Shown piece after piece: positions 2,965-51,632 of a DNA stretch of 64,000 bases (the first letter of the stretch is position 1; each line of letters begins with the position of its first letter). The notes below the pieces were generated by a model. That model was given only the letters and a program-made list of their open reading frames with translations. It did not search any database and was not told where the DNA came from. The stretch lies in the NCBI GenBank assembly GCA_026936335.1, contig JAPMXV010000048.1:1-64000 (forward strand), written 5' to 3'. This DNA is from Mantamonas sphyraenae STR306 (taxonomy: Eukaryota > Protista > CRuMs). Both the position numbers and the translations under genes were made by a program.

Positions 2965-5900
2965 TGAATGGTGTAGAGCACGTCGTCCATGTGCTTTCTG
3001 TGCCTGCTTCGGCCTCGCAATCGGTAGCTTTGAGCAAGAACGAGCTCGCTGAGAAGGTGGCTGCACTATCAGGCACGCTGTCACGCGGTGAACCCATGTG
3101 CTTGGCGGGGTTCCGCATGCAGACCAGCCCGTTCGAGTTTGGGTGTCTCTGCCTCCTCTGGACTGCATCTCAGCGAGCGTGTCTGCGCCTTTTTCTGTTG
3201 CGCGGGCCTCTCCTCTTGAAGGAGGTCTCAGAGGACACGAGCATCGTATGGGTCGTCTATGCTGCGATCTTGCAGCGGAGAGGGATGTCGCTTTGTCTGT
3301 TGCGGTGGAGATTTTGCTGACGAGGTGTTCTCGAGATCCATTGTGGTCTGTTGTTGCGCGCTGAAGGCAGGACTCGATGTCCATGTGCGAGGTGCAGGTG
3401 TGATGTAGGTGAGATCACCTGCGAGCTGGAGCCACCTGATAATCTCGACCAGGAGGGTCTGCATGTCAGGGGGTAACTGGGTTCTCCGCGTCATTTGTCG
3501 TTGTTGTTTTGGACCAGCCGGCGCAGTGCAGGGATTGCAATCCACGTCTCTATATCCGCAGCATGGAAACTTGACTGTGTGTGGATGGTGTGGTGTGCTG
3601 GCGACCGATGACCAGAGCGAGTGGTGCAGGGTGGTGCGGTGGATCGGAAAATCATCCTACTAGATATCGGCATAGTCATTCCAGGGGTCTGTCGGCATGG
3701 GCGGATGCCTGTTTGTGGCCAGCAGTCCTGTTCTGTTGGATGCGTCGTGTTTGTGGACACGGAGGCGCTCTTGTTGCGCAGAAAAAGCTGGATCATCGAC
3801 GGGAGGAGTTTGTCGGTGACCGTGTCCCAGCGCTCGCGGCAGTCAATCAAATCGTCGTCGTCGTCCGAATAGGAAGGAGGGACCCAAGGGAAGGGGAGAT
3901 CTTTCAGGCGGGAACGGAGGGCACGGTAGTCTGCGGTGCAGCGAGAGTACTCACGATCAAAGAGAACCGAGCCGAGCTCCACCACGTGGCCTCGTACGGA
4001 AACAGCTTGGTTGCGTCGATGGTGTCTTTGCCTTCCAAAACGGACAAGTACTTGACTTCTCTGGGCACGCGAGTTTTGGAACGCGAACGGTTTGCGTTGT
4101 TTGACGCGCGGCTCTTTGTGAGTGCTTTGAGAGTGCTGTGGTCGATGAGGTTTGCAAAAACGTGCGGGAGGTTGATGATCTCCCATTCGTGGAGCACTGT
4201 CCCTTGCACGCGTGTGGAGGGCCAGGAGTCCTTGCGGAGTTGCTGCAGGTGATCCAAGGGTCCATTGGATTCTGTGTTGCCAGCGGAGCCATGGCGGTCT
4301 TCCTCGTCGGACGAGTCCTCACTGACCTGCGGATGGGGGGAAAGATTCTGCAGCCGCCAGTGCAAGAGCCAGGCAAGTTTGAGTGCGAAGCGTGGGTACA
4401 CGTAGTGGTTGCGCACAGTCCAGGCCCTCTTCATACGAGCACGCCATTGTCGTGGTTCCATGATGAGGACAGATTCTTTGGCTGTGTCATAGGTGAGCAG
4501 GGAAAGGCGTTCTGAGCCATCAGGGCGGCGTCGAGATTGGCTGCAACAGGGCAGGTGGCCGGACAGAAGGGTTGTTGGCCATCCACGCAAAGGCGCAGGG
4601 TGCTCGCTGTTGTTCAAAGAGGAGCTTGAAGCGCGACCCGATGGCTTTGGATCCCACAGAAGAAGGCCGGCGTCGCTGTCGAAGCAGTGGATCCAAAGGA
4701 GTGGGGCGACAGATGCTTGTGTGTTCGGTTGCCGTCGATGTCTTGTGCATGTTGCTGCTGAGATAGGCACGTGGCGACATCCAGGCGGTCGCCGCAAAGC
4801 GGTACACGGCATGTGCAGCCAACTTGGCGACTTGCTTCTTCTGAGCGATGTGGTGGACCCATGAAACATGTGATAGCTCGGGCAATCGGCACGCCGTGGT
4901 GGGGGCTGCTCGGTCCGATCGAATCAGGCACTGTACACAATAGTCTGAGGTGACACTGTAGCCGTTCATGGCTTTGACATTGTGTTCCCACGCGTCGTGC
5001 TGTCGTTCGAGCAAGCCAACCAAGGAGTTCCGCCAGGCCTTGCGCAGCACTGTTCGCTCGCAGTCGTTCGTGTTGGCGGCTGCAGCGTCCTGATCTTGCT
5101 GAAAAGCGTGTGCATGAAGTTCATGGGCACGATGTAGCTCAGTTTCCAACAGAATTTGGAGCGGTAGGGGGTAATCGTGGAAGGGTTCGATGGACTCGAG
5201 CTTGTCGAAAACGGGCACGAGGACGTGTTCTTCCACGTCTTTGTACCAAGCGCCAAGTTTGCACAGCGGGACTACACCCACAAATGCCAAGCACGTGAGT
5301 ATGGCCAATTCGTCCTCAGACGCGCTGTCGCTCCTCGCCTGGGAACGAATTTCATCCGCAAACTGGCGAGCCTTTGTCAGGTTCTCCTGGTGCTCAGCAG
5401 TCACCCGCTGGGCAAGCAGAGCCGCCTTGCAGAGGGTCTGTGGATTGGTGGTGGCAATCAGACTCGAGCGCATCGACGGGAACTCGCGAAACCGTGTTGC
5501 GTTGGCACCGTGTTTGGGGTCCATCCAGAAGCAGATTAGTGTCTCCACAATATCGACCCTCTCCTGACTGTTGTTCTCAAGAAACGTTTGACAGTATTTG
5601 TTGATGACACTCTCTGGCTCAGAGGTGAGTTTGCAGCTCGAACCATGAACCCACAGCGGCTCCTTTTTGTTGCCTCCACGCTGGTGTAAAAGCTCTTCAA
5701 TGGACGACATCCAGTTCTCTGCGAGCGCTTCCAGTGTCTCTCTTTCCTGCTCATTCTCTTTGTCCAGCGAGAGCAGCTTGGCCTGAACAAGGGTGGCTGC
5801 CTCCAGCTCCACGCTCATCAAACGTCGCTCGTCAACTTCCAAAGCCGGTGTGCTGTCAATGCGAACATCCGTGAGGTGGAATGCAGGTCGAATGATATTG

Positions 5901-6762
5901 CGATTCATACCTCCATAGTAGGTCCAGGAGTGGCACCCAGTGTGTTCCCAGAGCACTGTGAGCGGGATCAGCCCCGAGAAACTTGCATAGACCACCAAAT
6001 CCCACTGGGCTGAAGACATGTTTGATGTACACACATATGCACTGTTGACAAATTGCCTCAATTTCTCGTAGGAGGTAAGCAGGGGCTCGGGAGGCGGGAG
6101 GTCCAGTGATGCTGAGGCGGCCGCCCACACGAGCGCTTTCACTTGACCAGGGGTTACCTCGCCGCCTTGATACTGTTGAAAAGCGGCAACTAGGTTGCTC
6201 TTGGGGTGCTTAGCATTGGGTCCTAGGTGTGTGAGCTCGTTCTTGTTGATATCTTCGATCAGCTCCAAGGTGATGCTCTCGTATGTGTGCTTGTCAGGCA
6301 GCTGGTGCTTTGAAGGTGAAGCAGGGGCCTGTTGGTCACCATTGGGCTGCAAGTAGTGGCGACGGGCACAGGATGTCCACACATGCGCGCATTCGGTACG
6401 TGTGAGTGCATGACCTGGGCCGGGATGGAGGTTGCAAGAGGGGAAACCCACCGTGCCGTTTGGGTCTCGGAGCTGGAGCTGGAGCTGGAGCTCGAAGATG
6501 CAGATGGGGTAGACTCTACCCGGGACCGCTTAGGTGCGTGGTCAGTTACAGGGTCAATGCTCTGCGGCTCCTCTTCTTGCTCTTGTTCTTGGTCCCCGAG
6601 CCGGATGGGCACTTGCTGCGCAGCCACCTGGACGCCAAATCGGCCACCCCCCTTGCGTCGCTGGTGCTTGGCGGACCTCTTGCGTTTACGTGATGCTGCA
6701 GGTCTATCTCTACGATGTGTGGCTCCCCAAACATTGCCCTCCTGTTGCTCACTGTTCTCCAT
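2965..6762 (-). CDS. Large orphan protein (>1000 aa when frames are joined); NLS-like N-terminus, CxxHx4Hx6C motif, duplicated internal helical domain; 3' end uncertain
   Basis: Fragments 6259-6870, 4520-6451 and 3904-4869 correspond to one 972-aa ORF in the other arm (60631-63549); 3491-4186 and 3228-3545 appear to continue it. Likely start MENSEQQ at 6762. Confidence 0.6.
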
Positions 6763-6904
6763 GGAGCAGAACAAAGGGCGGCTTTGGTGGGTTCTGCGCA
6801 ACTTGCTTGGCCCCTTTGTCCTCTTGCTCAACGTAATCAACGTATCGACGACGGAGCCCACAGCGCCCACGACTTGTGTGGTTCACAAGGAGGTGTACAC
6901 CTTT

Positions 6905-7262
6905 CACCCAATCAAGGTGGTGGGCCTGGTTGGACCTCGCCCGGGACCACTCTCATCGTCGGGTTCGTGTCGTTTCGCTCACCGCTTTCGATATCAGTGA
7001 GTCCTGGACCAAGTCCTGGGAGGACAGTTCCGCACATGTACCAACACACTCTTTGGTCACACACACTGTGGATTGTGATTGGTTTTGCGATGAAGCCTGG
7101 GCCCGGACCAGGTCCGGACCCACTGGTCATCGTAAAATCGGGTGTATTTTGATTTTTTGGCTTTTCATTTCACCTCATCAATTCGTGTGACTGGAGGTTT
7201 CGATGAAGGTCCAGTCCGGACCAAGTCCGGGACCACGAAACAAACCACAAACAGGGACCATA
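6905..7262. promoter_or_regulatory. Cluster of palindromic CGATGA...GGACC/GGTCC...TCATCG boxes between divergent genes
   Basis: 7083-7137 reads TTTTGCGATGA-agcctgggcccggaccaggtccggacccactgg-TCATCGTAAAA (11-bp inverted arms, 1 mismatch). Related boxes at ~6925-6960, ~7000-7022 and ~7198-7240. Confidence 0.6.
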
Positions 7263-7465
7263 CATGGACTACTGGTTGACAGATGGATGTGTCGACCTGT
7301 GTGGGCATGGAGGAAGCTCTGAGGGGCGTGGGAGCATCACTGTGGCCCTGTCGGTCCAACTTGGTCTGCAGCTCGTGGTTGCCCCGTCTGAGGCAACTCA
7401 ACGCGATTGCACTTTGCACGTCACAGTAATCCGCTCGATCACTCACAAGACGCAAACAAGCAATC

Positions 7466-10092
7466 ATGGACATCGATATCCCGGAAATCGACCCTGTCGA
7501 TGAGAGTGTTGGTGACATTGTCCTGGCAGACGAAACGAGCCAGCCCGATGCAGGTTCACAGCCCCACGACGAAGAAGGGCGCAAACGTGCACGTTCAGCA
7601 AGTATTGAGGAGTCGTACCAGGAGGACGAGTGGATTTCGACAGTTGCAGCGGCACTGCCCCAGCCAAAGAAACAGGCTCGCATTGACCTTGGTACGTGCC
7701 CCCCAAACGTCCACACACGGTTCCAAATTACGTGGTTGGTAAAACATAAAACACCTCTACAACAATAACTAACCCCCACGGGCATGGCGCATGGACGAAG
7801 TAGACGCGAGCGCCGTTTCAGACTCGACGCAGCACCTGGATCAGCCTTGCTCGTCATCCGCATCGGCTGGAGATGTTTGCAGAGCAACAGAGAGGCCATT
7901 GAGCAGGGATCAGAGGGAGCTTGTCGATTTGATAGTGGCCGCGACGCGAAAGAAGGACGCGGTGGGGCTTGTGATTGAGGCAGTGCCGGGTGCGGGCAAG
8001 TCGACTGTGATCAGGGTTATTGTGAAGGAAGTCCTCAGAGAAGAGGGTGGAGAGAATCGGTGGACGACCGACCGAGCTCTGTATGTGCTGGTGTTCAACC
8101 GCGCCAACGCGAACGATTTGAAGGAGGCACTCGAGCGAGCTGGAGTCAAGGTGGCGGCAAAGCGGAGTGACGATGGTGTGCACGTGTGCACTTTCCATTC
8201 CAAGGCCATGAGCGATTTGGGCAGTCATGCAAAGGGAGCGGTGACGTTTGATTCGAGCTCTTCGAGCTCGGTTCTTCCGAGATACTTTGTGCAGGTACTG
8301 TGCAGAGCGAGCGCTGACATGCAACAGGGCATGAAGATCGACGATGAGCGCATTGACTCGTACCTATGCGAAAACGTGACCAAGCTTACGAACGAATTTG
8401 TCAAACGAGCCGACGCGTCCAAGGCAAGCACCAACAACCAGGAAATTCGGGACATGTGTCAGAGACACTACCAAAACATTGTAAAGTTTGCCAAGCCTGT
8501 GTTGACACAGTGCTGTCAGCAGTATGCGCCGCTGGTCAGGAGCGTCGAGCAAAAGGTGCTGCGAACGCTGGTTGAGTTCTACAGCCAGGCTTGCATGCAG
8601 ATGAACATTGGCAACGACAAGAGTGAAGTATACCACATGATCAACACGGAACGCAATCTGCGCACTCACTCTGGACTGGAAAAAAAGGCGCTTGGGGCAG
8701 AGTTTGAGCGGGGCGTGCTGACCGAGCTCGTGTGCCTGGTGCTGAAGCCAGCCGAGCTGTTTGCCAACAACATGACAAGCATTGTGTCAATGCCAGATGC
8801 GGTGTACGTGGCAAACATCACAGGCGCAGATTCCTTGCCGCAGAAGCACATGGTGGCCCCTCTGCTCATTGTGGACGAAGCACAGGACTGCACTCCCGCC
8901 ATGATCGAATTTGCCCGCCGCATGACGGAAAAGAAGGGCAGCATACTTGCAGTGTTTGGCGACAAGCGCCAGGCCATCAACCTGTCACTAGGAGCGGCAC
9001 CAACGGCGCTTGCCACTCTGAAAGAGGAAGCCTCGAACCAGGGGATGCGAACGAACACCCTGGAGCTGAAACTCACACGTCGCGTGTTTTCCAAGATGGC
9101 ACCAGTGCTGGAGACGTTGGGCACCCCAATCGAGTTTGACAAGGACGTCGTTGCGCAAGGTACGTTTGGGCCGCGCGAGGAGCTGCCCCGAGCGACCACG
9201 GCAGAAAACGATGACCTATTGATCGTACGCAACAACCAGGAGCAGTGTGTGTTGCTGGCTGTGTACGACCAATTCTTCCTTGCAGACAATCGCGGCCACG
9301 AGTACGCCCAAGTTTGCACTGAGCTCCAGTGTCGGTGGAGCAAACACGGGGGCTCAGAAGAACATACGAATGTGGAAGAGTGGCGATCTACCGCGCAGGG
9401 GTTCGTCGAACGCGAGTTGCAGGTGATGCTCGACCCGAAGAAGTTGCCGACACGGAGGGCGTTGGCCGCACAGCCGTGGTCGGTCGCTTCGACACTCGCC
9501 AGGACGTCCAGCAGTTCTTCAGGAGCATCAGAGGTGCGAACCGCAGGGTGTCGATGATGTTGCGAACTGTGGCTCTTGTGCGAGGGTGGCGGTACTTGCA
9601 GCGGGATGATCTCGTTCATGAGCAGGGGGTACACGAACTCCAGCAGCGCTTCAACGACTTTATGCACGCTCCAGCAGACGCCATGGATGGCAACGGACTC
9701 TTCAAGATCCAGATCTCGACGGTACACAAAGCTAAGGGGCCGATCGCGGGAATGTGCACATCCTCGGACTCGTTGACCTGTTTGCCAGCACGCAAGGTAA
9801 CGCGGACGAGTCGTTGAACCTCGTTTACGTTGCTTTGACTCGCTGCAAGCGTGGGTTGTTTCTCTACCCGTTGCTGGATGTCGACGAAACTGACGATGAA
9901 GACAAGCTCTGCGAGACGCTGAGCAAACAGACCAACGTGAGAATGTTGAAGGCCCTGGATTTACTCATGCAAGGATCCAAGGCGGTTGAAAACGAAGGCT
10001 ATATTGGGCCCACCACAAAGACGTTTGTGGCTGCACTCCGCAAGGCCATCTCTCACAGAGAAAAACAAAGCGCGGAGATGATTGTCGAATGA
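7466..10092 (+). CDS. UvrD/FBH1-like superfamily 1 DNA helicase; two exons (7466-7691, then from 7801 or 7804); two 1-bp frameshifts near 9432 and 9739
   Basis: Motifs AVPGAGKST (I), LVFNRANA (Ia), CTFHS, LIVDEAQD (II), FGDKRQAI (III), STVHKAKG (V), LVYVALTRCK (VI). Intron with GTACGT donor at 7692, ACTAAC branch point and phase-1-compatible AG at 7800 or 7803. Confidence 0.88.
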
Positions 10093-10192
10093 ACGTGCCT
10101 CTGCTCTAGTGTATTGTAGACGATGCCAAACACCGCATTGTGGCTCCATGGCTTCAGACACTGTGAGCCAGCCCATGAGCGTTCGACCAACT

Positions 10193-10549
10193 GGTTTTCA
10201 CGATGAAGCTCAGGTCCGGACCCCGGGTCATCGTCAGGAACCACCCAAGGTCGTGTGGCGAAAAAAAAAAGTTGTATATATATACCATCCTATGAATTTT
10301 TTTTTTTTTGGAGAGGTGGGGTGGTCTTGCCTCGGCTGGGTGAGAAGTGTGGTTTTCACGATGAAGCTCAGGTCCGGACCCCGGGTCATCGTCAGGAACC
10401 ACCCAAGGTCGTGTGGCGAAAAAAAAAAGTTGTATATATATACCATCCTATGTTTTTTTTTTTTGAGAGGTGGGGTCGGCTGGGTGAGAAGTGTGGTTTT
10501 CACGATGAAGCTCGAGTCCGGACCCCGGGTCATCGTCAGGAACCACCCA
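10193..10549. repeat. Tandem repeat (units start 10193, 10351, 10495) of a palindromic box plus A10/TATATA/T12 tract; candidate replication origin
   Basis: Unit: GGTTTTC-ACGATGA-agctca-GGTCCGGACC-ccggg-TCATCGT-caggaaccacccaaggtcgtgtggcg-A10-gtt-GTATATATATAC-catcctatg-(aa)T12. Confidence 0.9.
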
Positions 10550-10710
10550 TCGGTGAAGATGTCCAAGGTCATGTGAACAAAAACTGTCTGTATCGTATTG
10601 TTGTGGTGTTGTATTGTACTTTGGTAACGTTAAACCAATTGGTAGTCTCGCGAGCAGATGTGCCTCGCAATGCTCCAGCTGTGCCAAGATAACGTTGTGT
10701 AGTTCGCCAA

Positions 10711-11319
10711 ATGACCCATCAGTCAATTAAAGGTGATTCTGAAAACAAGTGCTCTGGTTCGATGCCGAGTGGTGCAATCGGTTCGTTGAACACACCAACG
10801 ATGAACGATGGCGATGATGACCACAACATTGTTGTCGATGACAACGATGCAGACTACCGCAGCGGGTACGAACTGGAAGAAGGAATAGATGATGAGGCCG
10901 AGGAAGATAGGGGTGAAACCATCAGTGGAGTAGGGGGGTACGGGTTCCGTTTTATTGATGACGAATTTGAGGAGGAGGAGATTATGGACTCGGAGGAGGA
11001 GGAGGAGATGAGGCAGTTTATTGCGGATGACGACGAGTTTTTGGAGTGCATTGAGCTTACAAGCAGTGACGAGGAGGACGAGAACCGTTGGACGAGTGAG
11101 GAAGATGAGGACGATCAGTGGTACTACAACGAGGGGTCTGATGAGGAGGACAACTACGGCTATGCCAACTGGAGTGACTTGGATGTGGATGTTGACGATT
11201 TAAACAGCTCATGCTACTCCGGAAGCGATGTGGACGACTCTGGAGATGACGATGACGAGATAATTCTCCCCCGCCGGCGCAACCGACGTTCCATCCCAGA
11301 CGATGAAGCAGAAGCATAA
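10711..11319 (+). CDS. Small highly acidic (D/E-rich) protein with basic C-terminal patch; true start may be 10801
   Basis: Acidic ORF containing FIDDEFEEEE and FIADDDE, ending PRRRNRRSIPDDEAEA. Identical in both arms. Confidence 0.75.
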   Translation: MTHQSIKGDSENKCSGSMPSGAIGSLNTPTMNDGDDDHNIVVDDNDADYRSGYELEEGIDDEAEEDRGETISGVGGYGFRFIDDEFEEEEIMDSEEEEEMRQFIADDDEFLECIELTSSDEEDENRWTSEEDEDDQWYYNEGSDEEDNYGYANWSDLDVDVDDLNSSCYSGSDVDDSGDDDDEIILPRRRNRRSIPDDEAEA

Positions 11320-11442
11320 AAAGAAGGTGGGCTTTATAATTTCCTTGTTCTTGACACAGTGATGCTAAACAGTACGGGCACCAGCTCGCAAAAGTCAGCC
11401 TAGCTGGCGTATGTGTGTGTGTGATGAGTTGGTACCTCCTGG

Positions 11443-11490
11443 TTGATGAAGCAGCGTGCAGGACCAGGTCCGGACACCAGCGGCATCGGT
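11443..11490. promoter_or_regulatory. Degenerate copy of the palindromic box upstream of the UL9-like gene (mirror at ~56010-56058)
   Basis: TTGATGAAGC-agcgtgca-GGACCAGGTCCGGAC-accagcgg-CATCG. Confidence 0.5.
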
Positions 11491-11573
11491 TGGAGCACTC
11501 GATAGGCGAGTATGTTTTCCTGTTCGTGATGCGCCGTCACCCCCAACCAATCAAGATTTCGCTCAGTGGGGAT

Positions 11574-14500
11574 ATGCAGGGGTCTGACAGCCGGTCTGAA
11601 GCCAAGAATGAGGCTACAGTCGATGGCATGGAGCTGGAAACTGACACTGGACTGCCGTCGGCCGAGAGCACCCTCGCTGTGCACAACCATCCGGCCACAC
11701 AAGTGGAGCCTGTGAGGGGTAGCAACGAGCCTGTGAGGGGTAGCAACGAGGCTGTGAATGAGATTGTAGTCGATGTAGACAACACTACAGTCAAAGTTGG
11801 GATTGGGGAAGACGCTGAAGAGCCGTCGAGCACAGCGCAAAGAAAAGGCAAGGGTAAACTCGGCACGGGCTTTGGTATGTTCGAACGCAGGTACAGGAAA
11901 AGAGGTGGCCCCGTGTACGTACAAATCGGCGAAGAGACGGCGCGCATGGGTATTGGCAACATGGAGTACCCCGGGTACTGTGAGAAAATGCTGCGATGGT
12001 ACCAGGAGCATGCAGCGGAGAACGTCGTGCCTCTGGCTGAGGCCACGTATGCCCAAGACATGGATCACAAACTGGTAGTTCACTTCCGGTATGATGGCGA
12101 TGAAGAGAACGACGGCGTTTACGTGACGCATACCAAGAAAGTGGTGCTCGAGTTTCTCCAAAAGCTGGTCGGCGAATACGAGGACGAGGACATCGAGTTC
12201 ATGAGCGTTATGTACACCATCATGGTCCGTCGCTCTGCTGACAAAGACGATCCATCTGTGTGCGTCCAGCTGGTTGTGGATTTGCGTGTGGATCGGGACA
12301 CCGCAGAGCGCACGCTGGGGATCCTGAAGGAAATTGAGAAGAAGCTAGGTGGCGTCATGGTGTGCTCTGAAATGCTTCTTCCCGAACGACACTCACCTTC
12401 CATGTGTGGCTTGAACAGCGACCACCCTGTGACTGTCCTTCAGAGATTCAAGGGGACAGTGCAGCAAAAGGCTTGGAACAAGTCGGTGCGGAAATTGGTG
12501 ATGAGCGAGGATTACAGCAAGCTACTGACAGCGTACAGTTCCACCAGTGCTCTGTGGCCGTACACCATGCAAGCTGAACAAACGTGTCCTCCTGTGCTGG
12601 CAAACTGGCTGCTGCACAGGCTCGACACGTCCGACGAGCAGAGCACAATGTCCCTGGACAAGTACGTGTCCACGTTTCTCACCCAGCATGCTCAACACGA
12701 AGGTTTGCGCTATTTGGGGAGGATCTTGGAGGAGACTGCGCGTCTGATACCAACTCGCCTTCCGAGCGACTCTTGCAACACTCAGACAGCCACAGACACG
12801 ATGAACACAGACGAAAGCGGAGCTTTTGACAAGACCTGGGAGGAAGCAGATGTACAGGTGCGCCGCTCGGCGTTTGGCAACGGTGCGGTGCGGCTAATCA
12901 TCACCGACCAAGAGGAGCGGACACAAATCCGCGTCACCTCTCTCTCGTTTGCCAAAGGTGTACGTGTATGTACGGAAAGACGAAAACTGGGCTGTGTGTG
13001 GAGGGAATCCTCGGCACAAGGTGTCCCAGGTACCAAAGTCGCCCGATCTGTGCAACTTGGACCTGGACACGCTGCTTGTGCTCATGAGCGCCATCCTGTA
13101 CAACATACAATCACAGCCCGCCCGAACGATGGCGTCGGACTTGGAGAAAGAAAGGGCTGAGAAGGATTGGCTGGATGGTCTCAAGGAGAAGATCCATCAG
13201 CAGGATGTGTTTGTCCATGCCGGTCGCGCAGACGACAAGGAGGTGTGGGCCAAAATCTCGCAAGACATGGATCATCTGCGCCGTGACTACGAAGGGCAGG
13301 ACGATATCGAGATTGAGGATGCAGAAGGCAATTTGCCGATGCTTGTTTATTTTGTGTGCGCACCAACGGCTCTGGGTAAGTCGCTTCTCCTCGCCCGTCT
13401 GCACTCCGATTACCTTATGCATGCCACAGATGGAGACGACAAAGAATCGGCCTTTTTGCAGTCCTCGCTGAGCATCATCTACCGGACTGCCTTGCTGCCA
13501 AGCCTGATGGACAACCTCCCGGGCGTCGTCTCGTACGATGACATCCGCAACGGCAAGCGCAGAAAGGAAGATGTGCAACACGTCGTCTCAACAATGGAGA
13601 GCATGCTGCGCCATGTGTACCACGAAAACATGGAGCCTGAGTTTGTCAATCTCGACGAGATCGCGCGGCTACCGAGCAAGCTCCTGGAACAAACGTTGGC
13701 ACACAACGCACCGGTTAATGCGACCCTCGGCTGTATTTTGCGCACATTCATCACAGCCAAGATGCTGTACTTTGCCTCGGCGGAGTTGACGCCGGAGACG
13801 GTGTCGTTTGGGGTTTCCACCATCCGCAGGCTGGTTCCCAACCGCAATCTGCGTTTCCGTGTCATCGTAGTCGGACGAGAAAAAGCCACGTGGCATGGAC
13901 GTGGTCATCCACCGCTCACAGGAGACGTTTCTGCAGCGCATGATCGCCGAATGGCAGCACCGTCCACAGGCTGACCTGGAGTTTCTCCGCGACTACCGCA
14001 TCTTCTCTGCAGTGGATGACCTTGAACGCTGCTGCGAGCTCTACACCGAAAACCAAGCCGCTGTGACAGACCGCAAACCCACCGTGTACTTGGTAAAGGG
14101 CAAGGGAGTGGACAAAACGGAACAGGACCGGAGCGTCCGCAACCTGAACGCCATGAGCAAGAGTACATTCAAGCGGATTCCGCTGACCGATTTTCACAAG
14201 GCACAAAGCGAGAGAAAGCAAGGGCTTTTCCGCAATATGGCCAGGAGCCAATCGGCAAAAGGTTGCGCAGATCACGACGCGACGTTTGTGACGAGCAAAA
14301 TCGTTGAAGGAGTGAGCGTCGAGCCCACGGCGTTCGATTCATTCTCTTTTCTGCGGAAACCCGACTTAACATCACCCATGATGGTTGTGCAGATGGTAAA
14401 CCGTGTGCGAAACGTCCCGAACGATGTGAACGAGGCGTTCTTGCGCTCGCAGATGAACTTGGTCTCCGTCGGACGGCACAAAGATTACGTCGCGAATCTG

Positions 14501-15080
14501 GAGCTTCTTTTCAAGCACAAAAAGGACTTTGACCAGTACGCCAAGCGTCAGCATGCCAAGGATAGGTTGAGCAACAAGAGACTGTTTGGAAGTCCCCATA
14601 ACGCCCAGCGGGACATGCACATGGGATCCTCAGACCCGTGCGATGTAGCATTCATGGTAGAGTTGCTGGCGAAATGGAGCGCAGCAGAAAGCTCTTCGTT
14701 TGATGCTCAGCAACTTGAGCGAGGCCTAGCGCACAACGGGCAGAACGTGTACTATTTCGACGCCCCAATCCCCCTGAGGGACACAGATGTTGATGGTCAT
14801 GCTCGCATCGTCCTGGAACCATACGAAAGCAACGTCCATGTCTGGACTGTGGACGGTGAAGTCACCCTACCCCAGCTACCAGTGTACGACGTCAACGTGC
14901 CGTACGGGCCGTCAAACTCGCAGGACGAGTTGAACGCCACAGATCGACCTTCCAAGCGTGATCGAAGCGATGAAGACGCCCGAGGGGTGAGTTTGATGAC
15001 AACGAGAACCCCGTCGCAAAACACCAGCGGGTTGAGAAGGATCAGGGGGAGCCAGACAGCAGTGAGGAGTTCAATGACCT

Positions 15081-15116
<36 letters not shown>

Positions 15117-16449
15117 CAGTAGCAGTAGCAGCTCGGGACACAAGCTCGACACAACATCAGATCTGTGGCGCTTGTACGTATCCACCGTCAAGCTTCGGTG
15201 CCAACGATATACACCGCCCACTTCAAAAGCGGAAAACAATGTACGGTGGTACGAGAAAAGGCGCCGCGGGGTCCAGCGGTTGGAGAAGGTCAACGAGAAG
15301 CTCCTGCGCCAGGTCGCGCAAAAGGTGGAGGAGTATCGTACCAACGACAAGTCAGAGGAGAAGTACAAGGAAGAATTGCAAAAGAACATGAAAACAGCCG
15401 AAGAAGGGGATGATGAGTACAGCGGACCGCAACCGGACATGGTGGACTTGTACTGCGGGATGTCACCTGCAGAACAACTGGGTATCTGGGAAGCGATCCC
15501 CTACCGTGAGTTCGTGGCTTTGTTGGACTCTCCCAAGGAGCACTTATCATCCAGTGGCTGGTATTCAATCCAAGACAACCGTTGCAAACGCCTTCAGAAC
15601 CTTGCCCTTCTGACATGCTCACAGAAAACGCTTCAATCTGCAGAGAAACTGAGCAGGAGAACTGTCAGGGAGACCTCGAAGCACACAAATGCGCTCACGT
15701 CGCGCACAAACACGTCACCACCGCACTATAGCGACGACAAGGAAGTTCTGGACCGCATTCTGGGTTTTCTGGGAATACCAACAACCGACGAGCTCCGGCA
15801 ACTGGAGAAGGCGCCGGAAGACATTGTGTTATGTGCGTACAACACACCGAACACGAACGACGACGATCACGACGACGACGACGACGACGACGACGACTCG
15901 ACGGACAGGCAAGTGGTCTCGGCAGAAACCCTGGCCGAGATCCGTGACGTTGTCAACACACATGTTGACTCGGCCTCAGATGGCTGCTTGCTGGCCACCA
16001 AGAAGGTGGACAAAGAATTCACACTGTCTGCTGTGAAAACACTTCTATCGAAAGCTGGTGTGCCCATCATGAAGAGATCGAAGAAAGATGGTGACGGTGC
16101 ACAGCCAAAATACGCCACGTACATACTGGCAGGTAAGCAACTGTTCGGCTGGGCCCAAGCGGCCAAGAATCTGCGGCGCCACTGGAAATGCACGCAGCAG
16201 GACAATAGTCAGTATTCCTCTGGCCGGGGAGAGGCGAGCGCCCAAGGTCAATGTCCGTGTAGCTTCCACGAGCTGGACCTTGCCAAGAAGTTTCGCCGCG
16301 GTGCGCACAGGTCAAACGATATCTACCTGGAAAATCCAACCGCCGACGATGAAACACAAGTGTGGAGTGAGAAGCAGCAGGCACAACTGGATAGGCAGCA
16401 GCACATGAGTTCGAGCAACTTGACAGGCTTTGAAATGATAGAGACATGA
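11574..16449 (+). CDS. UL9-like origin-binding SF2 helicase protein (left copy; frameshifts near 12940, 13880 and 14985)
   Basis: Four ORF fragments (581, 341, 498, 425 aa) that correspond to the single 1678-aa ORF in the right arm. Confidence 0.75.
11706..11758 (+). repeat. 21-bp coding tandem repeat (EPVRGSN x2 plus partial)
   Basis: gagcctgtgaggggtagcaac repeated twice, then gaggctgtga. Confidence 0.85.
15081..15132 (+). repeat. (AGC/AGT)n microsatellite encoding poly-Ser in the UL9-like protein (mirror ~52368-52420)
   Basis: cagcagcagc...agtagcagtagc. Confidence 0.9.
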
Positions 16450-16593
16450 GCCCAGCGCCTTGATTGGAGCGCTCGACGAACCCGCACCGTAGTCAAGGAG
16501 CAGCAGCAACCACAATAACAAAACATAAAGAATCTTTCGCAACCGCTTGCTTTTTGTTGGATACCGTCAGGTGTGCAGTCGCTGTCCCACATC

Positions 16594-17961
16594 TCACTGC
16601 AGCAAATGAAGGAGACAGAGCCAAGTGAGGAGGAGCAGGATCAAATGAACATGGTTGTGAGTTGCGTCGCTGGAAGTGGGTGCTGCCGTTGGAGTTGGGG
16701 TTGGGGTCGAGCTGTCCGGTGTGGGCGACGACGGCTCACTCTTGCCAACCACCGAGAGCGAGCAGTACCGGGTCGACGTGCTCGCATCCATGGTAAAGCC
16801 AAACACCACGATGGAGTCACCTGCAAGTGTCATGCCAGACACGTAGTGGTCTGGAGCCCAGGTTTTCCACCACTGGAACGAGCCGGTCGCGTCGTACCGC
16901 AGCACGGCCGAGATGGGCGTGGTTGTCGTGCCCTGCAGATACCAGGTTGCGTAGTACACTCCCGTGGAATCTACATCGACCATTGCAGGTCGGGGGAACT
17001 GGTTGTCGATCGACGCATTGGTACGATGCCAGTTCAGTGTTCCAGCAAAATCTGTTTGGTACAGCGTGGCGCGCCACCCAGAGTTCTCGGCCTTGTAGGC
17101 GACAGTGTACAGCTTGCTAGACGCACTGTCTACAGCGATGCTCTGGGCGTCGTAGTCTACCATCGTTGCCCCTCCTGTGGGCGAAGACGAAGGGTAGGCC
17201 ACGCTCTGGAGCACACCTGCAGACGACACTCGTGCCACAAACATCCGCGTCGCAAATCCAGACGGTTTCGGGTACCCTGGTATGTTGGTGGATGCACCGC
17301 CCGCTGCAAAGATGTCTCCAGAGCTCGCATCGACGCCCACCTCGCGCACTTGGTCTTTGCTGTCGCCACTTCCAAACACCGTGGTCCACTTTACCGTGCC
17401 GTTCGACGCACGCCGTTGCACATACATCGTTACCGTGTTGGCTGTTGTGTTGGCGATGTGTCCAACCAGAACCAGGTCTGACGCTCCCCACGAAGCCATG
17501 CGCAGCCCACTCTGGCTCATGTCCGAATCCGCCATCTTCCACACCACCGTGCCGTTGGGCATGACGCGACTGAGTTCTGTCTGCCCGCTCGTCAGGGATG
17601 GGTTGGTGGAGATGCGACCAAGCACAAACACAGAGCCGTCCTGCAGCACCACGTCTGACCCGAATGACCGGAAGCGAACGCTCCACTCCGTCGTGCCGTT
17701 CAGGGCCATCTTGGCCAGGAAGCCGCGCGCAACTCCTGGTCCCGAGTATGAAAGCTGGTTGGCAAGCGTGGTGTATGCTGTGTCTACAACATACAGCGCC
17801 TGCGCACTGGCGTCCCAACGCACGCCCGAGCGTGTCACCGGAGACGAAGCAAGCCCAGAAAAGTGGTCGTTGCACCCGGGAAAGGTGTACGTCTGTACAG
17901 CCAGTGTGGGTGTCGCACACAGAAGCGTAATGGTCAAGATGAGAAGGAAGAAACGCGGCAT
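16594..17961 (-). CDS. Secreted beta-propeller (SBBP-like) surface protein with P/T/S stalk and hydrophobic C-terminus (GPI-like)
   Basis: Signal peptide MPRFFLLILTITLLCATPTLA. Repeats such as NGTVKWTTVFGSGDSKDQVREVGVDASSGDIFAAG. PTPTPT stalk and LILLLLTWLCLLHLLQ tail. Confidence 0.8.
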   Translation of the reverse strand: MPRFFLLILTITLLCATPTLAVQTYTFPGCNDHFSGLASSPVTRSGVRWDASAQALYVVDTAYTTLANQLSYSGPGVARGFLAKMALNGTTEWSVRFRSFGSDVVLQDGSVFVLGRISTNPSLTSGQTELSRVMPNGTVVWKMADSDMSQSGLRMASWGASDLVLVGHIANTTANTVTMYVQRRASNGTVKWTTVFGSGDSKDQVREVGVDASSGDIFAAGGASTNIPGYPKPSGFATRMFVARVSSAGVLQSVAYPSSSPTGGATMVDYDAQSIAVDSASSKLYTVAYKAENSGWRATLYQTDFAGTLNWHRTNASIDNQFPRPAMVDVDSTGVYYATWYLQGTTTTPISAVLRYDATGSFQWWKTWAPDHYVSGMTLAGDSIVVFGFTMDASTSTRYCSLSVVGKSEPSSPTPDSSTPTPTPTAAPTSSDATHNHVHLILLLLTWLCLLHLLQ

Positions 17962-19246
17962 CGCGGACGGGGTGGTTTTTTCGTGCTTGAAATTGCTGCG
18001 AGTTGCGCACGAGTCGTTCACGTCGCTTTCTACCCCTCTGACAGGGTGGCAATCGCCTCTTTGTTCCGTCCGTAGGTGCATGCTCTGCATGGTTGTGTTG
18101 GACATCCGTCTGTGGCCCTGTGTCCGGCTTGTCACGCAGTCGCAGGAGAAGCGGCTTGGTGTCAGGGCTTGCGCGGGTTTTGCCCTCCCAGGTCGCGTTG
18201 GAAGCCTGTTGCGCGGCGTTTCTGACCCGAAGATCGGTTAGAGGTTGGATCGAACACCTACAAGCAGCTTTCAGGTGTCACAGGTGTCTCTGATGGCCTA
18301 CGGTGGAGCTTGGCAAGGTAGGGTCAATCTCCGACCAGTGCGATCTGGATGTGCAGGGTGCATCAGGCAAGATCCGCTGTGGCCGACTCCTTGGCTGCTC
18401 TTCCATGCCTGGTGTGAACTCTATTGGAGCGCACAGTTGTTAGCATTGGGAGCAGAGTTGGAGTCGACCGATCGATTCACGGTAGACGTGGTCCAATCGA
18501 GCCATGCGCAGTCCGGGTCGCGTTTGCTCATCTCAGGTTTCTCGTTTCGCCACCACCTCAGCTGTGCGGTCTACTTCAAGAAATGGTATGGACAGCATTG
18601 GCTCCACAGGCGCCGGAGGTTGGTGCGTGAGGACCAACTTCGCCCAGTCGGCTCTTCTGGTGCAGGAGGCTCACCCATCCAAAGAACGATCCTTGGGATC
18701 TCCCAAACCCATGGGTTGCTTCATACAGACGGTGGTATGGACCGTGACCATTTGAGGGACAGGCTCGGTGGGCACGTTTGATTGCCGTTGTGCAAAAGGG
18801 AATCTGACCAGGCTGGGATGGTGTGAGGATGTCGCTTTGCTCTGCCCACCGAAAACCGTGCAATGCAGAAGCTACAACTGTCGTTGCACCCACAGCAAAG
18901 TGAGATCCATCTGGAGAGGGTATCCAAAGCAAGGGCACAGCCGACACACGATGACGAATCACTTGCCGAAACAACCCCTCCAAGGAGCCCAGACAGCACT
19001 TTGAGAGTCGCAGACAACGGCTGCACTGTGCTCACAATCATTCTATCACTCCAGTCACTCCTGGTGTTACTCCAGGTCACACATTCTGCGCACAGCTTGG
19101 AGGTGGATATTGTACGATATTGCGCGATTTTGTACAAACCCATCCTTCTTGGGATACTCTCGTTTTCTCGTTTTGCGTATACCGACTGGATATCTCAGAG
19201 GACGAGGGATCAAAGTGGACAGGGTAAGCAACGATTTTACGTGTCT

Positions 19247-20669
19247 TTACCACGTGCCTTGCATGTGGGCAAGCGCCGCAGAGGCCATCAGCATGACGAG
19301 CAGCGCACCGGCCGTTGGGCCACTCGCATTCTGGGACGAAGCGCTCGCACTGGGAGAGGTTGTGGCTGTGGGCGTCGGGGTCGGTGTGGCAGATGCACCA
19401 GGAGTCGGAGATGCGGACGGACTGGGACTGGGCGCATACTCAGTCGTAAACATGTCGCTTTTGCCAGCGCTCTGGAATCCAACTGCAATGAACTGATCCA
19501 CCTTGCCTGTCACCATCAGCGCCCCGTCGGACAGGAATCGAGTGTTGTAAGGAGTCGGTGTAGTGTCCCATCGGGATGCCAAGATCACGGTCCCGTTGGG
19601 ATCCATCTCGATCAGCGCGCGTTTGAAGGGAAGGTTGTTGTCTGGGATGGTTCCTGCATAGTACAGCTTGCCATGGTGGGCAACCAGGTTAGTGTCTGCT
19701 TGGATGACCCCGTTCACTTGAGTGGATGACACAAACGTGCCATTCGTGTGGTGGCGCATCAACAAGGGTTTGGACACGGGACTGCCCTGGTTGCCAATCG
19801 TGTACAACAGACCATCCGAGAGAAGCACCATGCCTCTGGGAAGTACAGGTGTCGTGTAGTTGCTCTGCCACACCCACTCGCGGTTGCCTTGCGGGTCAAG
19901 CTTCATCAGAAAGCCGTGGTTGGCGTTGCTGTACGTTCTGTTCTGGTTCGTGATGTCTCCGCTGGTGCGTCCGCCTACGTAGATTGCGTTGTTGATGATC
20001 TCCATCGTCCACACGCTCTCACTCTGGCTGTTGCCCATGTAGGGGGTGCTGTAGAACTGCCTGGACCACAGGATCTCCCCGTTCTGGTCCAGTTTTCACC
20101 ACCAACACGTCTTGCAGGTTAGGATTGCCACTTGTCATGTTCATGAACGAACCAAACACGCTGCCAGCAACGTAGATGTTGCCCGAGGCGTCCATCGCTG
20201 CGACGTCTGCGTAGTCCGTTGCTTCGACTCCGAACTGCTTGTTCCACAGAATGGTGCCCGTCGGAGAGAGCTTGCTCACCACCAAGTCTCGATCGCCTTT
20301 TAGCGTGAAGCCAGGCAAGGAGCCTCGTGTTTGGCCAAACACATACAGGTTGTCTTGCGAATCTACCACTGCACTGACGAGCTCATCTTCTCTGTCAGTG
20401 CCCCACTGCCTGCTCCACACACGTGTCCCGTTACGGAACATGCGTGTCACGTAAAAGTCGGCGTCGCCAGCATTTGTGTAGCCATCCAGGCTGCTTTTGG
20501 TCCAGCCCGAGATGAACACGCTTCCGTCGCTTGCTTCGTTCACACAACGAGCGTAGTCGTCCTCAGGTCCGCCCCATTGAGCGTTTGTCACTGTCTGACG
20601 GGATGGTCCAGCAAGTAGGATGAGAGTCGCTGCCAGAGACACGATAGAGAGTAGAGATGCCTTGGTCAT
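19247..20669 (-). CDS. SBBP-repeat beta-propeller surface protein 2 (left copy, 1-bp frameshift near 20093)
   Basis: Split ORFs 20019-20744 and 19247-20038 equal the intact 46830-48251. Confidence 0.8.
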
Positions 20670-22602: not shown

Positions 22603-22651
22603 CTTGAAATACCACCGTTGTTGTGTTGCATGCACAAGCGCTGCTGGTCCC

Positions 22652-24266: not shown

Positions 24267-24654
24267 GTCAGTGTTTGAGCGAAATGGGGGGTTTGCGTAC
24301 AAACGAAACCGTCTCTTGCACGGCTTGCTCAGACGAAACAGGCACCCTGGTTGGGGAGAAGTTTGCACAAATCCGGGTGAGTTCGGGACTGCCTGTTTGG
24401 ATGAAGTTGGCAGTGTTCATCGATCCACCCACGGACACAGAGATCTTGTTCACCGATCGCTCGAGCGAGGATGCCTGGATAGGAGGGTGTCCAGAAACAG
24501 TGCCAGATAGATGCAGAGTACTAAAACACTGGTCACTTGAACCAATGGGCCCAGGTTGTTGTCTCTTGGCTTGTTTGGGTGGGGTGGGATCTGGCGAACA
24601 AAATGGCGCAATTTTGGTGTTTTGCCAGGCCGCGAGCGTCCAAGCAAACCGACA

Positions 24655-27508
24655 ATGTCTGTGCGTGACACCGTGTCAACCATAGAGTCGTCAGAGAGTT
24701 TGGGCATGGACTCGTTCAACGGAGAGGTCACCGTCGCCTCACCTTTGCAAAGAGTCACGCGGCTCCAACGCAAGCGGACCCTCTCGACCAGCTCAGACGG
24801 CTCCAGTGCAAGCAGCGCAAGCAGCGAGACGCAGACGAGCTCGCGCACTCGCACATCGCATGAAACACATGCAGAGAAGCGGCAGCGTGTGGAGTCAACA
24901 ACGTTGGGGGGAGAGGGAGAGGAAGAGCAGGAAGAGCAGGAAGAAGTGGTCGAAAGTGGGTTGCGTTTTGTGCTGATCACCCTTTGTTTTCGGGCGTCGA
25001 CGCTGACACCTGGTCGCACAAAGGCACACCTACCGTTGCTGTGAGTCAGGACGATACCCAGACTGGTGCAACACATGATGCGCTCACCGAACAGGCAGTT
25101 GAGGAAGCAGGGGAAGAGGTGTCGGCGAGCACGATGGACGTTGAGGAGATGGCGAAGAGCGACGGCGGTGGAGACAAAGGGGGCGCCGTCCAGCACTCGT
25201 CGGTACAGACACCTTCTACAACTGGATCACAGGAGGAGGGTAGAGGTGTTACGTCTCCCACTGTGTTCACCGTAGAGGATGAGGAGGAGGAGGAAGGGGA
25301 CGTGACCCCCTCGCAAACAAGCGCAGGCTCCATGGCGGTCGGTAAGTTCTGCCCAAAAGGGGTAGGGGGCAGCGGTATAAAGGCCTGACGCGGATGCTTT
25401 TGGGTACAGAGCCAGCAAGCGAGCCAAACCTGAGCTCTGACGCTGCAGAGACTCTGGACGAGGTGAGCCCTTTGGACGCCTTGTCCGACGTTGATGAGGA
25501 CGACGGGGGCGACGAGGATGTGGAAGTGAGAGCACGGATTGCACACATCAGGCAAAGAAGAGCCACGGGAGAGGAATCTCCCTTTGAGCGAGTTCGTCAG
25601 CGGTTTGCCGAGATCAAAAAGGCGCTGAACGCAGATCGACAGCGTTGGAGGACAGCGGCCGGTCGTCAGGACAGCCAGGTCCACGCAGAGGCAACAAAAG
25701 GTACAGTGGACTTGCTCAAGCAACTGGCTCCAGTGTCCATTGACCGAGACGAAGTGTGGCGCTTCGCCATCGGACAAGAACAAGCGGTGGACATCTGGCA
25801 CTACGAATGGTACACCACGACAAACCCGTACGCTATGAGCAACCTAAAAGACCTCTGGTGCGTGTTTGTGCTGGGTGCAACCGAGGAGGAGCTGCAGGCA
25901 GTGCCCGAGGCTCAATGGCGCGACATGGTGGCCAAAACGGACAACCTGGATACAGTGTTGGGCCTGTACTTGCGCACAGAGTGTGTAGCTCCATCAGAAA
26001 CACCCCTGCGACGCGTAGCCACCAAAGCCCTGGGATTGAACACGACGTACAGCCTGGCCGAGTTTGTCATCAAGCAGAGGTTGGCGCGTGGTCAAGGGGT
26101 GGCGGGAGGAGGAGACGAGACACAGTACGATGATTCTGAGGGAGGTGGCAGACGAGGGAGTCGTCGATCGGGACAGGCATCGGAACGAGAACAACGTGGC
26201 GAAAGTTCCGAGTCACTCGAGTTTTCTGATTTGCACATGCGCTTCATCGACCAATGGGGCGCTGACGATATGGCACGGATGATTCGTCACATGTCGTTTA
26301 ATCATGTCTGTACGCACTACAAGGGAGACACTGCGAGGCACAACACCGTGGCGGGAAGTCCGGTCCAGATGATTCGGCGTTTCGTCTTGGGGTTCAAGAC
26401 ACCCCAGATCAAGCAGCTGTACGCCACTGGGTTTGGCAAGCGCACCAAGGGGTCGCCGTCCTTTGCCATGGTCTCATCGTCGTCGTCGTCGTCGTCGAGC
26501 TCAGCAGTCGATCGTCTGGACGCCCACATCTCTGCGGTGCAGTTGCTCATGGAGGCCATGTGGCACTGTATGGGTTTTTGGACAGAGCTGTGCAGCATGG
26601 TTCATTCTCTGGCTGCGCCCAATTCCAACCCACAGTCGCCTTTTCGTCTGCTGGCCCAGAACGTGGCCCGCGATATCGTTTACATGGACGAGGACAACCG
26701 CCGACACATCACAAACCACAAAGCCGTCATTTTGCAGTTTGTGCACCTGTGGCTGCCCGTGGAGGAGTACCCTCTTTTTCTCGAGTTTCACCGACTCGGT
26801 GCGCTGACGCTGATCCACGAGGGTGTTTCCTACCGCGCGTACGGTGATTTGCTCGAGCTGGCTCGAATCAACACCAAGGATGACTTTGCGGCAAAGATGG
26901 ACATGCTGGTGGGCAGAGTGACCGTCAAGCGCTGTGTCGGAGTGCAGTATGGAGGGGGTGAGTCAGACTTGGTCGAGCTGGGAGGTGACGATGACATCAA
27001 CCAGGCTATCAAAGACATCAAACAAGCCAAATCCTTTCCGGGGGCACAGGTCACTCACGAGGGTGCCATGGCGTTGCATCCCCTGGGCAACTGCGTGTTC
27101 AATCGGGCAGTCAAGACGGATCTGTGGGCGGTCGAGGAGAACGGGCTCAGCTGGGAGCAAAAGGTCGTGTTTGGGTATGTGCGCAATAGGCTTCGTGCTG
27201 CTGGGTTTCCGGTGGAGGAGCTGAGGAACGAGGAGAACGATGAAGAAGACCTCAAGGACTATGCGTGGTGGCTGGAACGAGCGGGGGAACCAAAGTGGGC
27301 AGACCTGCCGAATGGGTGCAAGAGAACGCTCAAGGGGTGGTTGATGGCATGCAATCGGCTGGTGGAGGGTGATATGGTCCATAGGGAGGCGGGTGAGGTG
27401 GTTCAGAGGATCGGGTGGGACGCCGTGCACCAAACCTACGCCCCACTGCTCTGGTTCGTTGTCAATGCGGTGGGGTGTCAGCAAGCGCGCGCGTGGGTAG
27501 CAGGGTGA
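24655..27508 (+). CDS. Orphan ~905-aa protein, three exons (24655-24955, 25024-25341, 25410-27508); acidic/Ser-rich N-terminus with NLS-like motif; terminal gene of the arm
   Basis: Two 68-nt phase-1 introns (GTGGGT...CTGAC...AAAG; GTAAGT...CTGAC...ACAG) join the 162-, 134- and 704-aa ORFs in frame. Confidence 0.75.

Positions 27509-51600: not shown

Positions 51601-51632
<32 letters not shown>

Follow-up and report, generated by a model that had tools for sequence, protein, structure and literature searches.

Eukaryotic chromosomes initiate replication via ORC and MCM. If a protist chromosome really carries an intact initiator of viral type together with its likely binding sites, this would be a second and sequence-specific route to origin firing in the nucleus. 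A contig of Mantamonas sphyraenae STR306 (JAPMXV010000048.1) raises this question: in the 64,000 nucleotides that we analyzed (the window), two helicase genes lie on either side of a palindromic, AT-rich array. A first-pass annotation of the same DNA proposed a new class of giant mobile or self-replicating element. Here we ask what the block is and how it came to be present twice.

Two inverted arms and a single-copy spacer

Self-comparison of the window showed that ~3516–27510 and ~39992–64000 form an inverted repeat of 24,020 nt with 99.8% identity (Table 1). The match ends at 3516 because the window stops at 64000, so the arm length of 24 kb is a minimum. The first-pass annotation had described a unit of at least 24 kb that is present twice, and read depth, which it had suggested comparing between arm and spacer, bears this out. 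The long arm contig had depths of 264, 190, and 10–11 in runs X1, X2, and X3, versus means of 130, 99, and 6.5 for the spacer contigs, for ratios of 2.03, 1.93, and 1.67. (All runs are from one study, X1 and X2 may themselves be the source of the assembly, and the regions covered for depth and junctions were 40001–50400 and 26600–28400.) This suggests that the arm exists in two copies only, with no sign of further ones or of amplification above 2:1. The spacer encodes a secreted-type protein of over 2,400 amino acids, a membrane protein, and an NPC1-N protein, and it contains a short repeat that is very high-copy in the genome.

Table 1. Features of the window, numbered from its first letter.
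Feature	Positions	Strand	Copy and remarks
Arm A	3516..27501	.	inverted-duplication copy carrying likely assembly indels
Orphan, ~1,030 aa, NLS-like motifs	3660..6762	-	copy 60739-63847 plus; 3' end frameshifted in both copies
Two diverged palindrome copies, 5' of 101-aa ORF and UvrD	7081..7231	.	copies 60367-60420, 60269-60303
Small orphan ORF, 101 aa	7466..7772	+	copy 59729-60034 minus; codon-likelihood score, no family
UvrD/REP-type SF1 helicase, 767 aa	7791..10092	+	intact copy 57407-59710 minus; helicase motifs present
158-nt tandem array, candidate origin	10192..10549	.	copy 56951-57307; three ~55-nt imperfect palindromes between A/T tracts
Acidic protein, 172 aa, 41% D+E	10801..11319	+	copy 56181-56699 minus
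Weak palindrome copy, ~40 nt upstream of UL9-like start	11445..11487	.	copy 56013-56055; nhmmer E 0.24
Likely UL9-like SF2 helicase, 1,640 aa	11529..16449	+	intact copy 51049-55971 minus; ESM Atlas, own profile, motifs
SBBP-type beta-propeller 1	16594..17961	-	copy 49537-50904; upstream intron 18128-18261
SBBP-type beta-propeller 2	19247..20669	-	copy 46830-48251
Orphan, 305 aa	21685..22602	-	copy 44899-45816
SET-domain protein, 537 aa	22652..24266	-	copy 43236-44849
Orphan, 905 aa	24655..27508	+	copy 39994-42847 minus; introns 24956-25023, 25342-25409; breakpoint in last codons
Spacer, single-copy, 12.5 kb	27502..40000	.	spliced host-like genes and high-copy short repeat
Arm B	40001..64000	.	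cleaner copy, continues past window edge

The contig end of the arm branches to both ends of the spacer. The first inner junction is spanned by 48 letters in X3; at the second, the arm side is covered by just 30 letters (X1 and X2), one below the 31-letter rule. It is very improbable that faulty assembly created the second arm: differences between the arms are almost solely homopolymer indels, and the runs share one study, but three runs give depth ratios close to 2, and run contigs contain each of the junction paths.

The shared sequence stops two codons before the stop codon of the 905-aa orphan gene. Past this point, the two continuations agree at 6 of 7 letters (offsets allowed), which 198 of 12,448 spacer positions also reach (~1.6% by chance). 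In the self-comparison, this inner end, which lies within coding sequence, had no matching terminal repeat, and no target duplication was seen in the window. (The GT at the junction was ruled out as a splice donor: no joint was seen, and a contig of X4 runs through the end of arm A as far as 27511.) The layout resembles the fold-back inverted duplications of human chromosomes, with two inverted copies, a single-copy spacer of under 15 kb, and short similarity at the junction. In one survey, the human spacers are single-copy, 20 of 21 are under 15 kb, and the inverted microhomology is 2–8 bp (PMC3907307). Our depth ratios likewise show a single-copy spacer flanked by double-copy inverted arms. 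The human cases differ in usually lying beside terminal deletions, and the similarity in our arm pair is imperfect.

When aligned, the arms disagree at 43 columns, of which 39 are gaps. Indels in arm A break the frames of the UL9-like protein, UvrD, the SET protein, one propeller, and two orphans; each is a single open frame in arm B, although the ~1,030-aa orphan has a shifted 3' end in the two arms alike. Because arm B is intact and the short-read contigs match it (0 differences across 40001–50400), the frame breaks in arm A are likely to be assembly errors, not introns. So most of the splicing first proposed for arm A probably falls away. What survives are three introns backed by GT-AG joints in run X4 (a pair in the gene for the 905-aa protein and a single one ahead of a propeller start) and NLS-like KRxRV motifs in several arm proteins. 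We take X4 to be RNA-like from its splice joints; it contains 0.75 of the words of 51000–60900, and we did not interpret regions without X4 cover as silent. The codon use of the arm genes correlates with that of the large spacer gene at 0.68–0.86 (the acidic gene is an exception, at 0.40), and the GC content of the arm matches that of the spacer genes. As both codon use and splicing are host-like, the module has probably been resident for a long time. There was no Rfam match and no tRNA in 27500–64000, and GC skew was uninformative.

The helicases and the candidate origin

Its sequence indicates that the 1,640-aa protein is likely a very divergent UL9-like SF2 helicase, with origin binding and unwinding as its putative function. 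Its top matches in the ESM Atlas had a score of 0.97 (the calibration of this score does not extend to parts of proteins). Among the matches listed, PF02399 is present in 7 of 10 Atlas clusters; viral members predominate in 7 of the 10, one is mostly eukaryotic (61%), and two are unrecorded. Preplasmiviricota is the commonest phylum in the top clusters, with the phylum recorded for few members. One of our three home-built profiles, from 25 bacterial and phage origin-binding Reps, ranked the protein first of 609 targets (E = 1.7e-4, versus 0.22 for the best of 200 shuffles), while the other two (N15 only and cyanobacterial phylum only) missed it. These results agree with the first-pass annotation, which had called a UL9-like helicase and considered it typical of viruses and plasmids instead of core replication.

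The helicase motifs are collinear with those of the 25-Rep profile. In the 1,698-aa frame, the Walker A motif (APTALGKS at 669) and the DEx-type motif II (LDEIA at 766) are intact, and later motifs follow in order at 806, 979, and 1012; we take these to be motifs III–VI. Motif II reads DEIA, versus DEVM or DEIM in herpesvirus UL9. HSV-1 UL9 is also an SF2 helicase with a DEI-type motif II (PMC13483431). However, our protein is twice as long and has no direct PF02399 match, any homology of its C-terminal part to the origin-binding domain would be putative, and the arm has no other herpesvirus gene. CyRepA1 and phage N15 RepA share the collinear motifs and a weak C-terminal match, but they are from bacterial hosts, N15 has a TOPRIM-type primase, and the similarity is near the detection limit.

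Closer relatives did not turn up. The protein had no match in Pfam (PF02399 included), PHROGs, NCBIfam, or PDB; phmmer with residues 182–1182 found nothing at E ≤ 0.001 in 1.84 billion proteins; a word search was empty; tblastn of phages, plasmids, and viral, metagenome, and genome contigs found none; and pairwise comparison to N15 RepA found no relationship. The N-terminal region has no Pfam match and no recognizable intact primase motif, and fold searches with single-sequence models of low pLDDT (33.6 and 40.0) had no match at E ≤ 0.001. A helicase without a detectable relative among so many proteins would therefore represent an unsampled branch of the UL9-like family. Since the searches of proteins and contigs brought up neither a close relative nor a related locus, they point to no donor and to no conserved neighborhood, which the first-pass annotation had suggested looking for in other protists.

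The second helicase is clearer, with family scores of 6e-15 (Pfam) and 2e-30 (PHROG). It had no match in phages or PDB, and searches for relatives gave three weak matches to unnamed or generic proteins and one viral stretch that yielded no locus.

The array between the helicases has 2.4 copies of its 158-nt unit and includes the four lowest-GC 60-mers of 27511–64000 (27–30% GC), much as first noticed. Palindromes alternating with the AT-richest DNA make an origin-like layout, and we consider the array to be a candidate origin. A profile built from its three palindromes also found (by nhmmer) the diverged pair, with E = 2e-5 and 2e-4 and folding z of −4.4 and −1.8, and the weak copy. The profile-found palindromes share one strand and all lie inside 56013–60420, upstream of module genes. 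No other match was below E = 0.4 in the spacer, the remaining arm, or the left flank, and no palindrome was found in front of any further gene in the window. Because the array palindromes fold modestly (z of −1.3 to −1.8) and lie upstream of genes, they may instead be promoter elements. (Scans for the palindrome pattern gave 121 loci, which we attribute to chance because none of them gave a tblastn hit with the arm proteins or with the origin-binding profile.) The helicase gene adjoins its candidate target, so both binding and origin activity are directly testable.

Other genes of the arm

We count ten ORFs in the arm, including the acidic protein and four orphans, instead of the nine proteins and three orphans first reported. 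The UvrD, SET, propeller, and acidic-protein calls held up. The acidic gene separates the array from the UL9-like gene. The SET domain matched at 8e-9, but its activity is uncertain because the NHS motif reads NSS. The two propellers matched SBBP-type families of NCBIfam at 7e-29 and 7e-5, each below the family cut-off; both have a signal-like start and a hydrophobic tail, and their GPI anchors were called by eye. The orphans had no meaningful match in PDB or Pfam; for the 905-aa protein, which has no Pfam match and occupies the boundary, where a tyrosine recombinase captain of a Starship or a KDZ transposase would be expected, there was a weak Atlas lead (0.90) to unnamed fungal clusters.

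Searches of Pfam, PHROGs, and NCBIfam found no integrase, transposase, capsid, or polymerase in the arm and no HUH endonuclease or MCP in the window. Neither the main arm ORFs nor 65 further frames matched capsid, A32 ATPase, VLTF3, YqaJ, or PolB. The SF1 helicase is of the UvrD type and stands alone, with no match to a Helitron or HUH family. So, as the first-pass annotation had concluded, nothing in the arm is recognizable as a hallmark gene of the Polinton, Helitron, Starship, or KDZ elements.

Where the module came from

We tentatively propose, with somewhat less than even confidence, that this is a replication-initiation module that derives from a DNA virus or plasmid-like element with replication in the nucleus. 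It would have been resident for a long time, and its second copy would have arisen by local fold-back inverted duplication, not transposition. A dimer of the UL9-like protein would bind the palindrome arms and melt the adjoining A/T tracts, using ATP, and UvrD would extend the unwinding. Because we found no polymerase and no intact primase motif, we assign synthesis to the host's polymerase and primase. The nuclear-targeted orphans, the SET protein, and the surface propellers would be cargo or host neighbors. Such an initiator-origin module could also account for local amplification.

It is rather unlikely that the arm is one piece of a larger nuclear DNA virus, endogenous or episomal, that belongs to a known group (skiavirus/Ariadnavirales, mriyavirus, polinton-like virus, or mirusvirus) and has its hallmark genes outside the window or hidden among the orphans. 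This would be a more ordinary result: a new intron-bearing endogenous virus segment. UL9-like replicases are already described in nuclear viruses of protists, in one of them beside an SF1 helicase. The core genes of skiaviruses, which are circular episomes in thraustochytrids, include a UL9-like AEP primase-helicase, and SmDNAV adds an SF1 helicase, lacks a DNA polymerase, and is predicted to replicate in the nucleus. As in our protein, the UL9-like SF2 helicase follows a long N-terminal region in SmDNAV and skiaviruses, mimivirus R8, ASFV pF1055L, and some mriyaviruses. Polinton-like viruses and polisuviruses, with AEP-SF2 or PolA-SF2 replicases, integrate in protist genomes and have a similar size range, and their phylum is the one that is commonest in the top, viral Atlas clusters. 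The orphan-rich arm continues past the window, and intron-rich nuclear mirusviruses exist. Unlike SmDNAV-type viruses, however, the arm lacks matches to capsid, A32, VLTF3, and YqaJ, its primase motifs are not recognizable, and its helicase has no relative at the threshold above. Unlike in polinton-like viruses, no major or minor capsid protein, packaging ATPase, integrase, or terminal inverted repeat was detected in it, and it has two local copies only. Its host-like GC, codons, and introns and its loose gene spacing also fit poorly, and skiaviruses are described as having no intron invasion.

Host-like composition, splice joints, and apparent transcription could instead mean that these are fully domesticated host genes: the helicases would act in host repair or replication, the palindromes would be shared promoters, and the duplication would be an ordinary segmental one. 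There are exactly two local copies, every palindrome group is 5' of a gene, and one Atlas cluster of the UL9-like family is mostly eukaryotic. We consider this unlikely, as an origin-binding-type helicase, a second helicase, and a private palindrome and AT-rich array would hardly fall in this order by chance, and the palindrome was not found upstream of other genes in the window.

None of our findings so far demonstrates a new type of mobile element, and we consider the first proposal improbable, in which the arm would be an autonomous nuclear replicon or giant mobile element of a new, capsid-less class. An intact initiator-like helicase with a second helicase, an origin-like array, NLS-like motifs, extreme divergence, and no known hallmark gene would suit it. 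In HSV, long inverted repeats surround a unique region and oriS is inside the repeats; the palindromes and A/T-rich tract near our helicase gene, within long inverted repeats, resemble this layout of HSV-1 oriS. Long inverted repeats also flank a unique region in Teratorn. In a herpes-like repeat-unique-repeat variant, origins would lie inside the repeats. The fullest version is equally doubtful: a spliced, expressed nuclear replicon without capsid or transposase, with a herpes-type initiator and oriS-like origins in inverted repeats of at least 24 kb around a unique segment, that would start its own replication and whose origin firing would have caused the duplication. But we saw neither a mobility gene nor a terminal repeat or target duplication, the inner end falls inside a gene, depth gives no sign of more than two copies, and the spacer holds host-like genes along with a repeat of very high copy number in the genome. 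Our search of the literature, with incomplete coverage, brought up no nuclear element that lacks a capsid and combines UL9-like and UvrD helicases.

We also noticed that the arm assembled into an unbroken contig of 11.6 kb, versus 0.3–2.3 kb for the spacer contigs, which hints that the entire arm, beyond the helicase module, differs from host DNA.

Two inverted copies

The unit of at least 24 kb that the first-pass annotation described as present twice is indeed an inverted repeat: by self-comparison of the window, 3516-27510 matches 39992-64000 over 24,020 nt with 99.8% identity. A spacer of 12.5 kb separates the two arms. The size is a lower bound because the match stops at 3516 where the partner arm hits the window edge. 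In their alignment, 43 columns distinguish the arms; 39 of these are gaps, mostly in homopolymers. These differences break most of the long genes in arm A, the copy first annotated; in arm B, the UL9-like (1,640 aa), UvrD (767 aa), SET (537 aa), and propeller frames are each single and open. We noticed that 24 of the 43 differences are packed into 1.4 kb (3516-4900), which reflects either poorer assembly or older divergence toward the outer end.

We matched the DNA in four sequencing runs (X1-X4), all from a single study; the assembly may itself derive from X1 and X2. Across 40001-50400, a single long contig equals arm B with no differences. The arm A indels within these inner 10.4 kb are absent from the reads, so they are likely errors. 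The arm contig's depth there was 264 in X1, 190 in X2, and 10-11 in X3, versus means of 130, 99, and 6.5 for the spacer contigs. This comparison, which the first-pass annotation had proposed, gives ratios of 2.03, 1.93, and 1.67 for the inner 10.4 kb, with contig depth being a rough measure. The arm contig stops at 27501/40001 and then forks into both spacer ends; one inner junction is spanned by 48 letters and the other by just 30. Given the depth ratios, the fork, and the bridged junctions, two inverted copies exist. Contig depth over the inner 10.4 kb gave no sign of further near-identical copies.

Features of the window and its flank
Feature	Coordinates	Strand	Remarks
Arm A	3516-27501
Spacer	27502-40000
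Arm B	40001-64000
LRR and ankyrin protein	622-1863	minus	left flank
UvrD gene	7791-10092		arm A
158-nt tandem array	10192-10549		arm B copy 56951-57307
UL9-like gene	11529-16449		arm A
905-aa gene	24655-27508		arm B copy 39994-42847, minus
~60-nt high-copy repeat	27865-27927		summed contig depth ~46,000-52,000 in X1, X2
Large protein, >2,400 aa	28280-35973	minus	signal-like start, two supported introns
Stand-alone short NPC1 N-terminal (sterol-binding) domain gene	37900-38883	minus	Pfam 2.5e-23, supported intron

A probable replication module

The UL9-like protein had no match in curated libraries or the PDB, and phmmer found no relative among 1.84 billion proteins. In the ESM Atlas, it scores 0.97 to Herpes_ori_bp clusters; of the 10 matches listed, 7 have PF02399 and 7 are mostly viral. 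As an independent test, we collected origin-binding Reps from phages and bacteria and built three profiles. The N15-only and cyanobacterial-phylum-only profiles did not detect the protein. The third, a hand-picked mix (n = 25), ranked it first of 609 targets (E = 1.7e-4, motifs collinear; the best of 200 shuffles reached E = 0.22). So the Atlas and one of three profiles support the UL9-like assignment. Walker A and motif II (DEIA) are both intact; motif II of herpesvirus UL9 is DEVM or DEIM (PMC13483431). The N-terminal region may be a primase; both predicted folds of it are low-confidence. By eye, the N-terminus of one cyanobacterial-phylum origin-binding Rep (L035:334-3360) resembles a primase-polymerase, not TOPRIM.

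Several other annotations of the arm hold up: the UvrD helicase (Pfam 6e-15, PHROG 2e-30), the SET protein (8e-9, with NSS for the NHS motif), two SBBP-type propellers, and the acidic protein (41% D+E). Orphans are present too, but there are four, not three. Several arm proteins have KRxRV-type NLS-like motifs. By eye, the SET protein's N-terminal region (43236-43950, plus strand) faintly resembles what we take to be a degenerate RNase III motif; Pfam gave no match there.

Within the array, copies of a ~55-nt imperfect palindrome are separated by A/T tracts, which are the lowest-GC 60-mers in 27511-64000. A profile of the three array palindromes matches two more copies, diverged and lying 3 kb from the array (E = 2e-5 and 2e-4), and, weakly, a copy ~40 nt upstream of the UL9-like start (E = 0.24). 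The palindromes are on a single strand, all inside a 4.4-kb stretch that takes in the UvrD and acidic genes. A palindrome-derived pattern has 8 matches in the window versus 0 in 100 shuffles, a partly circular comparison. Folding is strong for the far copy (z = -4.4) and modest for the array copies. The putative origin proposed earlier keeps its palindromes, its A/T tracts, and a layout that would suit an origin, but every palindrome group also sits 5' of a gene, so the palindromes may instead have a promoter role.

GT-AG ends occur in 9 of 12 listed joints, all in X4, which also shows adapter tails and uneven depth. From these features we infer that X4 is RNA-derived, while none of the four runs is recorded as RNA. 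Of the nine joints, the arm has three: a pair within the 905-aa gene and a single one 5' of a propeller start. The introns claimed earlier are supported at these joints; the breaks at the arm A indels are likely errors instead. X4 also contains a fraction of 0.75 of sampled words from 51000-60900 (arm B's helicase module), which is consistent with its transcription. The replication module is intact and probably expressed.

Origin of the locus

We regard the locus as real and unusual: a very divergent viral- or plasmid-type replication module, locally doubled, in the chromosome of a eukaryotic microbe. Our tentative preference is for a resident module that underwent fold-back duplication. PMC3907307 gives a single-copy spacer under 15 kb and short inverted similarity as the signature of such events. 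Here, the two continuations past the breakpoint agree at 6 of 7 letters, as do 198 of 12,448 control positions. The spacer looks chromosomal because of its NPC1 N-terminal gene, spliced genes, and very high-copy short repeat. An artefact is highly improbable: the depth ratio is near 2 in three runs, and the arm contig forks into both spacer ends.

A new class of mobile or self-replicating element, as first proposed, is not supported, and a new autonomous element seems quite unlikely. As that annotation said, no hallmark gene is recognisable: the main frames and 65 further frames of at least 130 aa had no match to polymerase, capsid, packaging ATPase, integrase, transposase, HUH, or recombinase. 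Depth over the inner 10.4 kb shows no sign of extra near-identical copies. And the shared sequence breaks off two codons short of the 905-aa gene's stop, which each spacer end supplies; a transposon end within coding sequence is unlikely. Teratorn also has long inverted repeats flanking a unique region, but it has a transposase and herpesvirus genes (PMC6431247). Our literature searches turned up no capsid-less nuclear element of such make-up.

A segment of a larger virus of known type is somewhat unlikely. Earlier work (10.64898/2026.08.29.747986, 10.1101/2024.02.29.582850, 10.64898/2026.07.28.741200, 10.64898/2026.10.13.758929) describes a UL9-like primase-helicase as a core gene of skiaviruses, which persist in thraustochytrids as circular episomes; SmDNAV also has an SF1 helicase, without a polymerase, and UL9-like primase-helicases occur in mimiviruses, ASFV, some mriyaviruses, and polisuviruses. 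The unit would work like an initiator-origin module of these viruses, which does not make it a member of any of them. Full domestication of the genes is unlikely, though codon use and GC of the arm genes are similar to those of the spacer genes.

The high-copy repeat occurs once in the window. Depth beside it is only 110-130 (X1, X2), and its depth in the RNA-like X4 is ~30,000. It is a dispersed repeat of very high copy number, apparently transcribed. The middle of the large spacer protein is coiled, and it also has repeats rich in cysteine, among them a 956-nt tandem duplication; no family matched convincingly. A loose end at 28301 suggests related sequence elsewhere. At 30450-39750 the spacer is split into contigs of 0.3-2.3 kb, and X1 and X2 share roughly the same break points; the arm at 40001-51629 is one unbroken 11.6-kb contig, free of the repeats or variants that split the spacer contigs.
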